Part shown: one piece after another, positions 5,210-53,564 of the stretch | Position numbering within the stretch: position 1 is the stretch's first letter | Layout: each line of letters opens with the position of its first letter | Origin: Escherichia coli | GTDB taxonomy: Bacteria; Pseudomonadota; Gammaproteobacteria; Enterobacterales; Enterobacteriaceae | Reading direction: 5' to 3' (one strand) | Length of the DNA: 64,000 nucleotides | Assembly (NCBI RefSeq): GCF_045037415.1 | Contig: NZ_CP173438.1 | The notes under the pieces: model-generated | Database searches by the model: none | What the model saw: the letters and a program-made list of their open reading frames with translations, nothing else | What the model was told of the DNA's origin: nothing | Made by a program: the position numbers and the translations under genes

Positions 5210-8200
5210 TTACGCCTTCTCGATGTTTACTAAGAACGCTTTATATTCCGGCGTTTGCGAGTTTGCATCACCGACATTCGGCGTCAGAGTGTTAGCGATA
5301 TAACCTTTACGCGCGACACCTTCAAAGCCCCAGTGGATTGGAATACCCACCGTTTCAACCTGCTGACCGTTTACATTCAGCGGTTTCAGACGGCGCGTTA
5401 CCACAGCCACCGCGCGGATAAAGCCACGCTTGCTGGAGACAGTGACACGATCGCCATTGGCAATGCCTTTCGCCGCCGCCAGCGTTTCGCTGATTTCCAC
5501 AAACTGTTCCGGCTGAGCAATTGCGTTGAGCAATGCGTGCTTGGTCCAGGTGTGGAAGTGCTCCGTCAGACGATAGGTCGTACCCACATACGGGAACTGC
5601 TCTTTTTTACCCATCCGCAGCGCGTCTTGTTCATACAGACGAACAACCGGGTTAGACACCACGTTCGGATGCAACGGGTTAGTGCCCAGCGGCGTTTCAA
5701 TTGGCTCGTAGTGTTCCGGGAACGGACCTTCCGCCATTTTGTTGATGGCAAACAGGCGTCCCATCCCTTCCGGTTGCATGATAAACGGCCCGGTTGGCGT
5801 ACCCGGCGCGGCATTGCCGAAGTCCGGAATATCGTTACCCGTCCACTTGCTACCGTTCCACTGGATCAGCATCCGTTTCGGATCCCACGGTTTACCGTTG
5901 ATATCCGCCGAAGCACGGTTGTAGAGTACGCGACGGTTGAGCGGCCACGCCCAGGCCCATCCCAGCGTATTCCCCAGACCGGACGGGTCGGAGTTATCGC
6001 GGTTAGCCATCTGGTTGCCCTGCTCGGTCCAGCTACCGGTGTAGATCCAGCAAGAAGATGCGGTTGTACCGTCATCACGCAGATGTGCAAAGCTACTCAG
6101 CAACTGACCTTTCTTCGCAATCAGCACGCCATTAGCGTCATAGAGATCTTCCAGCGCATAGCCGTTATTCTCTTTCGCCACTTCATCAGACTGCGGTTCG
6201 TGCGGCTGCTTGTAGTTCCAGCTCATCTTCATCAGCGGTTCTACGCCTTTACCACCTTCGGCCTGGTACAGCTCGCGCAGATGATGGTAGATACCCGCCA
6301 GAATTTCGCCGTCGTTACGTGCTTCGCCCGGCGCGTCCTGACCTTTCCAGTGCCACTGCAACCAGCGACCGGAGTTAGCGATAGAACCATCTTCTTCAGC
6401 AAAGCAGGTCGAAGGCAGACGGAATACTTCAGTCTGAATAGATGCCGGATCGACATCGTTCGACTCGCCGTGGTTCTGCCAGAAGGTAGAGGTTTCAGTC
6501 ACCAGCGGATCGATAACCACCATGTACTTCAGCTTGCTCAGGCAGCTCACCACTTTGTTTTTGTCCGGGAAGGACGCAACCGGGTTAAAGCCCTGGCAGA
6601 AATAACCGGTGACTTTACCTTCATCCATCATGTTGAAATACTTGATGACGTCGTAGGTCTGGTCCCACTTCGGCAGCCAGTCGTAGCCCCAGTTGTTCTC
6701 TTTCTGCGCGGCATCGCCGTAGAAAGATTTCATCAGGCTAACGAAAAACTTCGGATAGTTGCTCCAGTAGTTCACCTGATCAGCCAGCGTCGCTTTCGGC
6801 GTGTTCGCTTCCAGATACGACTGCAAATCAACCTGTTTTTCTGACGGCAGCGTCAGATAACCTGGCAGGCTGGTAGAGAGCAGGCCTAAGTCAGTCAGGC
6901 CCTGAATGTTGGAGTGACCACGCAATGCGTTCACGCCGCCACCGGCCATACCCATGTTACCGAGCAGCAACTGGATCATCGCCATCGTACGGATGTTCTG
7001 CGCACCCACGGTGTGCTGCGTCCAGCCCAGCGCGTACAGGAAGGTGGTTGTGCGATCCGGTGCGCTGGTGGAGGCCAGCACTTCACACACTTTCAGGAAG
7101 TCGGCTTTTGGCGTACCGCAAATGTTTTCTACTACGTCCGGCGTGTAGCGGGAAACGTGCGCTTTCAGCAGATTCCATACACAGCGCGGATGAGTCAGCG
7201 TGTCATCGCGTTTCGCATAGCCGTTTTCATCGAACTGATAGTTCCAGGACGACTTATCGTATTGACGTTTTTCAGCGTCGTAGCCGCTGAACAGACCGTC
7301 TTCGAAAGCAAAATCATCACGCACCAGCAGGCTGGCGTTGGTGTAATGCTTAACGTATTCGGCGTTGATTTTGTTGTTTTCGATCAGGTAGCGCAAAACG
7401 CCAGACAGGAACGTAATGTCCGTACCGGAACGAATAGGTGCGTAAATATCCGCCACAGAAGCGGTACGCGTAAAACGGGGATCGACAACGATCAAGGTTG
7501 CATCGTTGTTGTTTTTCGCTTCCATCGCCCAGCGGAAACCGACGGGATGCGCTTCAGCAGCGTTACCGCCCATCACCATTACGACGTTAGCGTTTTTGAT
7601 ATCCACCCAGTGGTTGGTCATCGCACCGCGACCAAATGTTGGAGCAAGACTTGCTACCGTTGGTCCGTGTCAGACGCGCGCCTGGTTGTCTACCGCCAGC
7701 ATCCCGAGGGAGCGGGCAAATTTTTGAGTCAGCATCCCGGTTTCGTTGCTGGCACCGGAAGCACACAGCATACCGGTAGAAAGCCAACGGTTTACCGTTA
7801 CGCCCTGCTCGTTCTTTTCAATAAAGTTAGCGTCACGGTCGGCTTTCATCAGCTTCGCAATACGGGAGAATGCTTCTTCCCAGCTAATGCGCTGCCATTT
7901 GTCAGAACCTGGCGCACGATATTCCGGGTAGCGCAGACGGTTTTCGCTGTTGACATAATCCAGCAAACCGGCCCCTTTCGGGCACAGCGCACCACGACTT
8001 ACCGGATGATCCGGGTCACCTTCAATGTGATAAATCGCTTCTCTGGCGTTTTTCGCGCCATCACCCAGGCTATACATCAATAGCCCGCAACCTACGGAAC
8101 AGTATGTGCAGGTGTTACGGATCTCTTTCGCGCGTAATAATTTGTAGTTTCGCGCCTGAGCCAGTGCTTGCTTCGGGGCAAAGCCCAATGCTGCTACTGT

Positions 8201-8257
8201 TGTTCCCGCCATACCGCCCGCGCAGATTTTAAAAAATTGTCTGCGACTGACGTCCAT
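5210..8257 (-). CDS. fdnG: Formate dehydrogenase-N alpha subunit, selenoprotein (1015 aa) with in-frame UGA at 7670..7672 read as selenocysteine; Tat signal peptide
   Basis: Two in-frame ORFs 7670..8257 (ends ...VDNQARV then TGA) and 5210..7621; intervening codons translate HGPTVASLAPTFGRGA with no other stop; N-terminus MDVSRRQFFK is a twin-arginine motif. Confidence 0.93.
7625..7669 (-). promoter_or_regulatory. SECIS-like region immediately 3' of the fdnG UGA codon
   Basis: mRNA segment CACGGACCAACGGUAGCAAGUCUUGCUCCAACAUUUGGUCGC contains complementary GACCAA/UUGGUC and GCAAG/CUUGC arms; bacterial SECIS elements sit directly downstream of the UGA. Confidence 0.55.
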
Positions 8258-8488
8258 TGCTTTCCTCTTTTTTCAGGGGTATTACTGCGCGAGGAAACTA
8301 ACAGTAAAATTCTGAATCTTTTTGCGCGAAATCAAAAAGAACACGTGTTTGCCACAAAATAATCCGCCTGCGCAAATTGACCTACCTCAATAGCGGTAGA
8401 AAAACGCACCACTGCCTGACAGGCCAGTTAAAAAAATGCTATAAAATTCAGCTTAATTTTTAACGGCAAGAGAGACAAAACAGCGAGC
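8258..8488. promoter_or_regulatory. Divergent fdnG / yddG promoter region with FNR-like site (8322..8335) and NarL-like 7-2-7 heptamer pair (8383..8398)
   Basis: ttgcgcgaaatcaa resembles TTGAT-N4-ATCAA; tacctca-at-agcggta resembles inverted TACYYMT heptamers. Confidence 0.45.
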
Positions 8489-9370
8489 ATGACACGTCAA
8501 AAAGCAACGCTCATAGGGCTAATAGCGATCGTCCTGTGGAGCACGATGGTAGGATTGATTCGCGGTGTCAGTGAGGGACTCGGCCCGGTCGGCGGCGCAG
8601 CTGCTATCTATTCATTAAGCGGGCTGCTGTTAATCTTCACGGTTGGATTTCCGCGTATTCGGCAGATCCCGAAAGGCTATTTACTCGCCGGGAGTCTGTT
8701 ATTCGTCAGCTATGAAATCTGTCTGGCGCTTTCCTTAGGGTATGCGGCGACCCGTCATCAGGCGATTGAAGTGGGGATGGTGAACTATCTATGGCCCAGC
8801 CTGACAATTCTCTTTGCCATTCTGTTTAATGGTCAGAAAACCAACTGGCTGATTGTACCAGGATTATTATTAGCCCTGGTCGGCGTCTGCTGGGTGTTAG
8901 GCGGTGACAATGGGTTACATTATGATGAAATTATCAATAATATCACCACCAGCCCATTGAGTTATTTCCTGGCGTTCATTGGGGCGTTTATCTGGGCAGT
9001 CTACTGCACAGTAACGAATAAATACGCACGCGGATTTAACGGAATTACCGTTTTTGTCCTGCTAACGGGAGCAAGTCTGTGGGTTTACTATTTTCTTACG
9101 CCACAACCAGAAATGGTATTTAGCACGCCCGTCATGATTAAACTCATCTCTGCGGCATTTACCTTAGGATTTGCTTATGCTGCATGGAATGTCGGTATAT
9201 TACATGGCAACGTCACCATAATGGCGGTAGGTTCGTATTTTACGCCCGTCCTTTCCTCAGCGCTTGCAGCCGTGCTGCTCAGCGCCCCGCTGTCGTTCTC
9301 GTTCTGGCAAGGCGCGCTAATGGTCTGCGGCGGTTCCCTGCTCTGCTGGCTGGCGACACGTCGTGGCTAA
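8489..9370 (+). CDS. yddG: Aromatic amino acid exporter, DMT family (293 aa)
   Basis: ORF 8489..9370; MTRQKATLIGLIAIVLWSTMVGL recognised as YddG; polytopic membrane protein. Confidence 0.88.
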   Translation: MTRQKATLIGLIAIVLWSTMVGLIRGVSEGLGPVGGAAAIYSLSGLLLIFTVGFPRIRQIPKGYLLAGSLLFVSYEICLALSLGYAATRHQAIEVGMVNYLWPSLTILFAILFNGQKTNWLIVPGLLLALVGVCWVLGGDNGLHYDEIINNITTSPLSYFLAFIGAFIWAVYCTVTNKYARGFNGITVFVLLTGASLWVYYFLTPQPEMVFSTPVMIKLISAAFTLGFAYAAWNVGILHGNVTIMAVGSYFTPVLSSALAAVLLSAPLSFSFWQGALMVCGGSLLCWLATRRG

Positions 9371-9642: not shown

Positions 9643-11031
9643 ATGGCACTGCAAAATGAGAAAAATAGTCGTTATCTTTTACGCGACTGGAAACCAGAAA
9701 ATCCGGCCTTCTGGGAAAATAAAGGAAAGCATATTGCACGAAGAAACCTCTGGATATCAGTCAGTTGTCTACTTCTTGCCTTCTGTGTCTGGATGCTATT
9801 TAGCGCAGTTACTGTTAATCTCAATAAAATCGGTTTTAATTTTACTACCGATCAACTCTTTTTATTAACCGCATTACCCTCCATTTCTGGCGCATTATTG
9901 CGTGTCCCCTACTCCTTTATGGTGCCTATATTCGGTGGACGCCGATGGACGGTTTTTAGTACTGCAATCCTGATTATTCCTTGCGTCTGGCTCGGAATTG
10001 CCGTGCAGAATCCGAATACTCCTTTTGGGATATTTATCGTTATCGCTTTGCTATGCGGTTTTGCAGGTGCGAACTTTGCTTCGAGCATGGGCAATATCAG
10101 TTTCTTCTTTCCAAAAGCCAAACAAGGGAGCGCTCTTGGGATTAATGGCGGATTAGGAAACTTAGGTGTAAGTGTAATGCAGCTGGTTGCACCGCTGGTC
10201 ATTTTTGTCCCCGTATTTGCCTTTCTCGGCGTCAATGGCGTACCGCAGGCCGACGGTTCGGTGATGTCGCTGGCGAATGCCGCATGGATTTGGGTGCCAT
10301 TACTGGCGATTGCCACGATCGCCGCCTGGTCAGGGATGAATGATATCGCCAGTTCACGCGCCTCAATTGCCGACCAGCTCCCTGTCTTACAACGCCTGCA
10401 TCTCTGGCTGCTGAGCCTGCTTTACCTTGCCACCTTCGGTTCGTTTATCGGTTTTTCTGCGGGTTTTGCCATGCTGGCAAAAACCCAGTTCCCGGATGTG
10501 AATATTCTGCGCCTGGCGTTCTTTGGCCCATTTATCGGTGCCATCGCGCGATCGGTTGGTGGTGCTATTTCCGATAAATTCGGCGGCGTGCGGGTGACGT
10601 TGATCAACTTCATTTTTATGGCGATTTTCAGCGCCCTGCTGTTCCTTACCTTACCGGGCACAGGCTCCGGTAATTTCATCGCATTTTACGCCGTATTTAT
10701 GGGGCTGTTTCTGACCGCGGGTCTGGGAAGTGGTTCTACTTTCCAGATGATCGCCGTCATCTTTCGCCAGATAACAATTTATCGGGTGAAGATGAAAGGC
10801 GGTAGTGATGAGCAAGCTCAAAGAGAAGCCGTCACCGAAACGGCAGCCGCTCTGGGCTTTATCTCAGCCATTGGCGCAGTGGGCGGCTTTTTTATTCCGC
10901 AGGCGTTTGGCATGTCGCTCAATATGACCGGCTCTCCGGTGGGCGCGATGAAAGTGTTTTTAATCTTCTACATCGTTTGTGTGCTACTGACCTGGCTGGT
11001 TTATGGTCGGCGGAAGTTCAGCCAAAAATAA
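9643..11031 (+). CDS. narU: Nitrate/nitrite transporter, MFS (462 aa)
   Basis: ORF 9601..11031 trimmed to ATG 9643 (MALQNEKNSRYLLRDW); multi-TM MFS protein. Confidence 0.88.
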   Translation: MALQNEKNSRYLLRDWKPENPAFWENKGKHIARRNLWISVSCLLLAFCVWMLFSAVTVNLNKIGFNFTTDQLFLLTALPSISGALLRVPYSFMVPIFGGRRWTVFSTAILIIPCVWLGIAVQNPNTPFGIFIVIALLCGFAGANFASSMGNISFFFPKAKQGSALGINGGLGNLGVSVMQLVAPLVIFVPVFAFLGVNGVPQADGSVMSLANAAWIWVPLLAIATIAAWSGMNDIASSRASIADQLPVLQRLHLWLLSLLYLATFGSFIGFSAGFAMLAKTQFPDVNILRLAFFGPFIGAIARSVGGAISDKFGGVRVTLINFIFMAIFSALLFLTLPGTGSGNFIAFYAVFMGLFLTAGLGSGSTFQMIAVIFRQITIYRVKMKGGSDEQAQREAVTETAAALGFISAIGAVGGFFIPQAFGMSLNMTGSPVGAMKVFLIFYIVCVLLTWLVYGRRKFSQK

Positions 11032-29411: not shown

Positions 29412-29606
29412 GTACGGGCGTCCAGCCAGATGAATAAAACGCGCGCAAATATGCGTCATTTTTTGACGTGCATCAAGTTTTTTTCACCAGTTTGAGAAAA
29501 AATCATCAAACAGCAACTTGCCCTTATCCATCTTCAGAATGAGTATTATTGCGGATTTTCTTAACCCGTACTATACACATAGGGGCAATGATAAAAGGTG
29601 GCAAAA

Positions 29607-51020: not shown

Positions 51021-51099
51021 TTATTTTCGTCCCTAAGGAAACCACATAGGATGCTCACGGGTGCCTGAGACTTTCTGTTTTCAGGCTAACCTGGAATCA

Positions 51100-51145
51100 G
51101 AAAGACGAAGGCCCCGACCGATATTTCTATCAACCGAGGCCAACG

Positions 51146-51175
<30 letters not shown>
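51100..51175 (-). ncRNA. sokB: Expected position of the SokB antisense RNA (approximate)
   Basis: Placement by analogy with hok/sok loci where the antisense RNA overlaps the mok translation-initiation region; exact ends not determinable from sequence. Confidence 0.3.
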
Positions 51176-51354
<179 letters not shown>

Positions 51355-51769: not shown

Positions 51770-51833
51770 CTTCCGATGTAGGCCCGTATTCTTCGCCTGT
51801 ACCACGGGTCGGTTTTAGTACAGGCGTTTTCTT
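51770..51833 (+). ncRNA. rydC: RydC small regulatory RNA
   Basis: cttccgatgtaggcccgtattcttcgcctgtaccacgggtcggttttagtacaggcgttttctt matches the RydC sequence as recalled; terminal hairpin cgcctgtac/gtacaggcg plus U tract; sits between ydcA and cybB. Confidence 0.7.
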
Positions 51834-52562: not shown

Positions 52563-53564
52563 ATGAGTAAAGTTGGTATTAATGGTTTTGGTCGTATCGG
52601 TCGACTGGTGTTGCGTCGATTACTTGAAGTCAAAAGCAACATAGACGTTGTCGCTATTAATGATCTCACTTCCCCAAAAATTCTCGCCTACCTGCTGAAA
52701 CATGATTCAAACTACGGACCGTTCCCCTGGAGCGTTGATTATACGGAAGATTCACTTATCGTTGATGGGAAAAGTATCGCGGTTTACGCCGAAAAAGAGG
52801 CTAAAAATATTCCGTGGAAAGCGAAAGGCGCAGAAATCATTGTCGAATGTACAGGCTTTTATACCTCCGCCGAGAAATCGCAGGCGCATCTTGATGCTGG
52901 CGCGAAGAAGGTGTTGATTTCCGCCCCTGCCGGTGAAATGAAAACCATCGTTTATAACGTCAATGACGACACTCTGGATGGCAACGACACCATTGTTTCC
53001 GTGGCGTCATGCACCACTAACTGCCTTGCGCCGATGGCCAAAGCCTTGCATGACAGTTTCGGGATAGAAGTCGGCACGATGACGACCATTCATGCCTATA
53101 CCGGCACCCAGTCACTGGTGGATGGCCCGCGTGGTAAAGATTTACGTGCTTCACGCGCAGCGGCAGAAAATATCATTCCCCACACTACGGGGGCGGCAAA
53201 AGCCATTGGCCTGGTGATCCCGGAACTGAGCGGCAAACTGAAAGGTCATGCGCAACGCGTGCCGGTGAAAACAGGTTCGGTCACTGAACTGGTGTCGATT
53301 CTCGGAAAAAAAGTGACTGCCGAAGAGGTGAACAACGCGCTTAAAAAGGCGACAAACAATAACGAGTCATTTGGTTATACCGATGAAGAAATAGTCTCTT
53401 CCGATATCATTGGCAGCCATTTCGGTTCGGTGTTTGATGCCACGCAAACGGAAATTACCGCCGTGGGCGATTTACAACTGGTGAAAACGGTCGCCTGGTA
53501 CGATAACGAATATGGCTTCGTCACGCAGCTTATTCGCACCCTCGAAAAATTCGCTAAACTCTGA
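52563..53564 (+). CDS. gapC: Glyceraldehyde-3-phosphate dehydrogenase paralog, intact (333 aa)
   Basis: ORF 52563..53564 uninterrupted; NAD-binding [10 protein letters not shown] and catalytic [10 protein letters not shown]. Confidence 0.88.

Follow-up and report, generated by a model that had tools for sequence, protein, structure and literature searches.

The fdnGHI control region has been a model for dual control by oxygen and nitrate since the 1990s, and the closest described system is the same locus in E. coli K-12 (Li & Stewart, 1992; Li, Kustu & Stewart, 1994; Darwin, Li & Stewart, 1996; Darwin et al., 1997; Wang & Gunsalus, 2003). Anaerobic induction of fdnG is reported to be fnr-dependent (Li & Stewart, 1992), and a phospho-NarL footprint and narL-dependent induction by nitrate are likewise reported (Li et al., 1994; Darwin et al., 1996, 1997; Wang & Gunsalus, 2003). 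Babujee et al. (2012; PMC3349551), who cite Darwin, Li & Stewart (1996), place FNR at -42.5 in the E. coli fdnG promoter and the NarL heptamers at -77, -100, -109, and -124. In FNR-activated promoters, the site lies at -41.5 ± 4 in 19 of 23 cases, and -42.5 falls inside this class II range. Published ChIP work classes fdnG as FNR-activated together with nitrate and NarL, and a 2025 review restates the joint control of fdnGHI by FNR and phospho-NarL. RegulonDB/CoryneRegNet lists four NarL sites for b1474 (fdnG), CGGATTA, TGAGGTA, TACCGCT, and AGTGGTG (MotifAdjuster Additional file 4), of which TGAGGTA and TACCGCT are flagged as the 7-2-7' pair 3a/3b, and fdnG is one of the four genes for which a 7-2-7' has been reported.

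The DNA analyzed here is a 64,000-nucleotide stretch from E. coli (the window), in which divergent fdnG and yddG genes are separated by a 231-bp intergenic region at 8258..8488 (Table 1). A 431-bp query over this region was 100% identical to E. coli chromosomes annotated with fdnG and yddG, and it was matched in 5413 of 5426 complete E. coli genomes; 6 of 5415 matches to this chromosomal region in the E. coli genome collection were in records labelled as plasmids. An Rfam match at gathering score placed SECIS_3 of fdnG at 7617..7675 on the minus strand, following the in-frame TGA, whereas the same search detected no RNA family within the intergenic region. Elsewhere in the window, Rfam matches at gathering score were obtained for the sok antitoxin RNA of a hok/sok locus (51059..51210, plus strand) and the sRNA RydC (51770..51833, plus strand). 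The intergenic region carries three SNPs relative to K-12 MG1655 (8344-8345 and 8370), none of which touches a site considered here, and the four NarL heptamers, the FNR site, and the -10 element are identical to those of K-12. We conclude with high confidence that the region controls fdnGHI, the E. coli operon for formate dehydrogenase-N, and is composed of a class II FNR-dependent promoter and a NarL 7-2-7 pair. Both motifs are the classical, experimentally mapped fdnG sites, so that their recovery is a rediscovery of what was already known and by itself of little consequence. The sequence, geometry, statistics, and motif conservation reported below were obtained in this analysis, and FNR and NarL binding, dependence on these regulators, and the transcription start are taken from the literature.

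Table 1. Features of the fdnG-yddG region. Positions are those of the window; promoter coordinates are relative to the fdnG start.
Feature	Position	Strand	Details
fdnG N-terminal coding segment	7670..8257	-	ATG at 8257; 195 codons to the selenocysteine TGA; from the ORF list and RefSeq annotation of identical DNA
Inferred fdnG transcription start (an A)	8286	-	29-nt leader
fdnG extended -10, TGtTAGTTT	8295..8303	-	No -35; the FNR site replaces the -35
FNR site	8322..8335 (centre 8328.5)	-	Reads TTGATTTCGCGCAA in fdnG sense; -42.5, class II position
Weak NarL heptamer TAATCCG (-77)	8360..8366	+	Listed for b1474; PWM 4.25 bits
Second FNR-like site	8377..8390		TTGAGGTAGGTCAA in fdnG sense, TTGACCTACCTCAA on the plus strand; -97.5; overlaps the -100 NarL heptamer
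NarL/NarP 7-2-7 inverted heptamer pair	8383..8398		TACCGCT-AT-TGAGGTA in fdnG sense; heptamer centres -109 and -100; pair centre -104.5
Weak NarL heptamer CACCACT (-124)	8407..8413	+	Listed for b1474; PWM 1.7 bits
Predicted yddG extended -10, TGcTATAAA	8437..8445	+	Read from sequence
yddG, aromatic amino acid exporter, divergent neighbour of fdnG	8489..9370	+	From the ORF list and RefSeq annotation of identical DNA

The initial annotation, made from the letters of the window, had proposed an FNR-like half-site pair and an inverted heptamer pair upstream of fdnG and had suggested a comparison with the mapped promoter elements. In this comparison, the centres at 8328.5, 8363, 8386, 8395, and 8410 reproduced all five published positions (-42.5, -77, -100, -109, and -124) with a single start at 8286. 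Because this is the only start that reconciles the five positions with the annotated heptamers and the window sequence, we infer that +1 of fdnG lies at 8286. With this start, the -10 hexamer would occupy -14 to -9, which is 2 nt upstream of the canonical location and counts against the reading given above. A scan of 8200..8550 for consensus promoters and terminators gave no matches, since its rules exclude both promoters of the region, that of fdnG for having no -35 and that of yddG for a -10 ending in A.

The proposed FNR pair was found at the place and with the letters given, TTGCG-CGAA-ATCAA on the plus strand, and read as TTGAT-TTCG-CGCAA in fdnG sense it matches the TTGAT-N4-ATCAA inverted repeat at 8 of 10 half-site bases. 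A position weight matrix (PWM) built from 62 ChIP-supported sites (Myers 2013, Table S6), with the fdnG entry left out, scored it at 10.4-10.5 bits, which ranked 11th among the ≈64,000 positions of the window; 64 of 3000 dinucleotide-shuffled versions of the intergenic region scored as high. This score lies below that of the weakest training site (11.8 bits) and below the genome-wide cut-off of Myers 2013, whose listed site at this locus is another one. By score alone, therefore, the -42.5 site is modestly above chance and only suggestive. The top FNR match of the window was TTGACGTGCATCAA at 29463..29476 (16.0 bits). Its reverse complement is the yncL/ydcX site, which Myers 2013 place under an FNR ChIP-seq peak and which belongs to the training set.

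The heptamer pair likewise reads as had been noted, TACCTCA-AT-AGCGGTA on the plus strand; it is inverted with a 2-bp spacer, and each heptamer matches the TACYYMT consensus at 6 of 7 bases. It corresponds to the pair annotated for b1474, whose four heptamers lie in the window at 8360..8366, 8383..8389, 8392..8398, and 8407..8413. With a NarL PWM built from 68 annotated heptamers, b1474 sites left out, the 7-2-7 scored 12.25 bits, ranking 3rd among the ≈64,000 positions of the window, and its score was attained in 4 of 2000 shuffles. The NarL pair is thus convincingly strong by score alone. NarP reportedly binds the same fdnG 7-2-7 without activating. The two 7-2-7-like matches that scored above the fdnG pair were TACTCCTTTTGGGATA at 10017..10032 (13.4 bits) and TACCGATGAAGAAATA at 53378..53393 (13.1 bits). 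The -77 and -124 heptamers and the higher-scoring FNR-like site over the -100 heptamer had not been listed in the initial annotation.

A scan of one genome per species yielded 80 Enterobacteriaceae loci with FdnG N-termini that were 88-100% identical, and yddG was divergent to fdnG in 74 of these 80 species; counts out of 81 below include the window. TTGATTTnnCnCAA was found in all 81 sequences, in which the two central bases of the FNR spacer vary freely and the CGCAA half-site stays imperfect in all but a few species, which have CTCAA instead. The fdnG extended -10 is at least 90% conserved across 80 species, and in 76 of the 81 sequences its first base is 28.5 bp away from the centre of the FNR site. 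The highest-scoring 7-2-7 within each intergenic region also keeps a nearly fixed place in 76 of 81 sequences, its distance upstream of the FNR centre being 62 bp in 73 of them and 61 bp in 3. At this offset it occurs as 63 distinct 16-mers, which implies that the motif itself, and not merely common ancestry, is conserved, and the aligned columns give TA[AC]YCC[CT]-WW-AGGR[GT]TA, the consensus for NarL/NarP. By position, the median score of NarL heptamers peaked only at -109 (4.9 bits) and -100 (7.1 bits), where 77% and 89% of the sequences, respectively, scored at least 4 bits, and was below 3 at all other positions from -135 to -56. Thus, the comparison adds to the known architecture a core that is shared across 80 Enterobacteriaceae species and consists of a weak FNR site, an extended -10, and a 7-2-7 at -104.5.

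In the population of E. coli records, the site segments held fewer variants than the spacers, a comparison to be read as descriptive only since few independent SNP events underlie the counts. A 32-bp segment with the 7-2-7, which also holds the second FNR-like site, was identical in 5354 of 5415 records (98.9%), and a 46-bp segment with the FNR site and -10 was identical in 5219 (96.4%), compared to 4070 (75%) and 5068 (94%) for two 32-bp spacer controls. Among the orthologous loci, three metagenome bins (L005, L015, and L034) look mislabelled. The yddG-fdnG region of a 'Citrobacter sp.' MAG agrees with that of the E. coli window in all aligned columns shown. In a 'Delftia acidovorans' MAG the locus is enterobacterial, with a promoter most like that of a Klebsiella MAG (L032), and the promoter of an 'uncultured Raoultella' MAG is identical to that of C. 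braakii in the same alignment.

The auxiliary heptamers behaved differently from the pair. As a NarL-like motif, the -77 heptamer was not conserved in the orthologous promoters of other genera (median score -0.8), and the -124 heptamer was not conserved in the orthologous promoters of genera outside Escherichia. A separate block, ACTATTWAGKRGG, at 8351..8363 on the minus strand (fdnG -77 to -65), hardly varies in ≈75 of the 81 Enterobacteriaceae promoters and is better conserved than the NarL pair itself, and E. coli departs from it with ATTATTTTGTGGC. LSJC7, Tenebrionibacter, and Cedecea have a good 7-2-7 centred at -81.5 opposite this block, where the alignment crosses an indel of ≈10 bp. 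The fdnG leader contains a perfect consensus NarL heptamer, TACCCCT, at +6 to +12 (8275..8281, minus strand), and the Salmonella and Citrobacter leaders (L007, L010, L023, L031, and L033) are ≈48-57 bp longer at this point. In E. coli the leader heptamer is probably accidental, because it appears to have formed at a deletion junction. Another regulator, CpxR, has been linked to the region. In a 2022 paper (PMC9600279), one CpxR box is predicted in the fdnG-yddG intergenic region, this region is among those chosen for CpxR gel-shifts, with CpxR said in general to bind the tested promoter fragments, and CpxR-dependent changes in expression of both fdnG and yddG are reported.

That the motifs are chance matches without function in an AT-rich intergenic region is scarcely credible. 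An FNR-like site of this score does arise in ≈2% of shuffles, and single NarL-like heptamers are common, with 0.3-5% of window positions reaching the scores of the four annotated heptamers. However, chance would require loss of the motifs in most orthologues, which was not seen, and this explanation is already contradicted. Both motifs keep fixed positions across 80 species while the adjoining sequence diverges, and database annotation, ChIP peaks, and the genetic literature point the same way. As judged from the 80 orthologous promoters, conservation places both motifs far beyond chance; the initial annotation had made its proposal depend on sites that are conserved and score above background, as both proved to be. 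Its reading that the spacings fit anaerobic activation of fdnGHI by FNR and nitrate activation by NarL is borne out by the agreement of published positions, annotation, and conservation. A more substantial question is raised by the second FNR-like site, to which this analysis also points, since it lies over a NarL site and is listed genome-wide instead of the classical site. FNR might act mainly or additionally through TTGAGGTAGGTCAA at -97.5, competing with NarL for the -100 heptamer, and FNR bound there might damp expression without nitrate until displaced by phospho-NarL. This site scored 15.8 bits, ranked 2nd among the 64,000 window positions, and was reached by only 2 of 3000 shuffles; Table S6 of Myers 2013 has no other site under the yddG/fdnG ChIP-seq peak and gives this one at 1545292, which corresponds exactly to 8377..8390, and the peak centre (1545309, window 8373) is 10 bp from it and 44 bp from the -42.5 site. 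Moreover, its half-sites are kept in E. albertii, and it stands 55 bp from the -42.5 site, similar to the 45-53 bp that separate the paired sites of yfiD, cydA, and ompW. We rejected the peak centre as an arbiter between the two sites, as peaks and motifs elsewhere in these tables are 40-76 bp apart, with ≈42-76 bp for fnr, fnrS, ydfZ, and ynfE, and the FNR ChIP-chip and ChIP-seq peaks inside the intergenic region have too coarse a resolution to separate -42.5 from -97.5. The identity of the 32-bp segment in 5354 of 5415 E. coli records also speaks for the second site, but it is inseparable from conservation of the overlapped NarL heptamer. Against this possibility, -97.5 is not an activating class II position, and the site is restricted to Escherichia (E. 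coli, E. albertii, and the cryptic clades), missing from all other genera although these keep the promoter, the 7-2-7, and the -42.5 site; Pseudocitrobacter has an independent analogue 5 bp away. A literature search found no experiment on the -97.5 site, and literal searches of papers for the site sequences returned only primers and one unrelated match. The site may have arisen merely from the heptamer together with a chance GGTCAA. We regard action of FNR through -97.5, including a functional tandem site that competes with NarL, as unlikely.

The 7-2-7 might also, or instead, regulate yddG. The predicted yddG promoter reads CTGACA-18 bp-TGcTATAAA, in which the -35-like CTGACA (8416..8421) is found in E. 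coli only, and TGnTATAxx is present in 69 of 81 sequences. In 68 of these 69 it lies 48.5-52.5 bp from the 7-2-7 centre, and in 51 its first base is 49.5 bp from that centre, a steadiness that is kept despite divergence of the intervening sequence. If the predicted start lies 7 nt downstream of the hexamer, the 7-2-7 would be at about -61.5 for yddG, a class I-like position. However, the constant distance may only mean that the region is compact and poor in indels, the yddG start is itself predicted from sequence, and Myers 2013 attribute the effect of the FNR peak to fdnG and not to yddG. Transcription of yddG is reported to be constitutive (Tsyrenzhapova, 2009), and a literature search found no paper tying yddG to nitrate or NarL. 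Regulation of yddG from the 7-2-7 is thus very doubtful. The statement in the initial annotation that the same region serves the divergent yddG holds only trivially, in that a conserved predicted yddG extended -10 also lies there, but nothing shows that FNR or NarL controls yddG.

The reading with the strongest support is the established one, a class II FNR-dependent promoter with a NarL 7-2-7 upstream. According to this model, the promoter consists of an extended -10, TGtTAGTTT, with no -35, and the imperfect FNR site TTGATTTCGCGCAA at -42.5, from which [4Fe-4S]-FNR recruits RNA polymerase under anaerobiosis. In the model, the FNR site is deliberately weak, as its CGCAA half-site is conserved in weak form, and such weakness means that full expression also needs phospho-NarL. 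A NarL dimer binds the 7-2-7 at -109/-100, with the -124 and -77 heptamers as auxiliary sites in E. coli. As a result, fdnGHI is made only when oxygen is absent and nitrate is present, in parallel to narGHJI. A bolder version, which we consider improbable, would add FNR bound at -97.5, in Escherichia only, that damps the class II promoter without nitrate and is displaced by phospho-NarL, and, separately, a 7-2-7 that acts in both directions. If this were true, what is called nitrate activation would in part be relief of repression, with NarL and FNR acting both as competitors and as partners.

Compared to other known systems, fdnG shares its regulatory pattern with narGHJI, where a class II FNR site (-41.5) is combined with a requirement for phospho-NarL, bound well upstream, for full activity. 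In contrast to fdnG, with its 7-2-7 at -104.5 and no annotated IHF site, narG has no 7-2-7 and instead has heptamer clusters at about -89 and -195, with IHF needed between them. The inverted TACYYMT-N2-AKRRGTA arrangement for a NarL (or NarP) dimer is found at napF, nirB, nrfA, yeaR, and ogt as well as at fdnG. In these other promoters the 7-2-7 is nearer the start, at -44.5 in napF, -43.5 in yeaR (midpoints of -40 to -49 and -38 to -47, respectively), -44.5 and -77.5 in ogt, about -69.5 in nirB, and about -74.5 in nrfA. By contrast, the fdnG pair is at -104.5 and works together with FNR. A further likeness is to promoters with two FNR-like sites. At yfiD, the upstream FNR has a damping role. 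The two sites are 45-53 bp apart in each of yfiD, cydA, and ompW (Myers 2013, Table S6), compared to 55 bp in fdnG; unlike in these promoters, the upstream FNR-like site of fdnG is putative, restricted to Escherichia, and overlaps a NarL heptamer.
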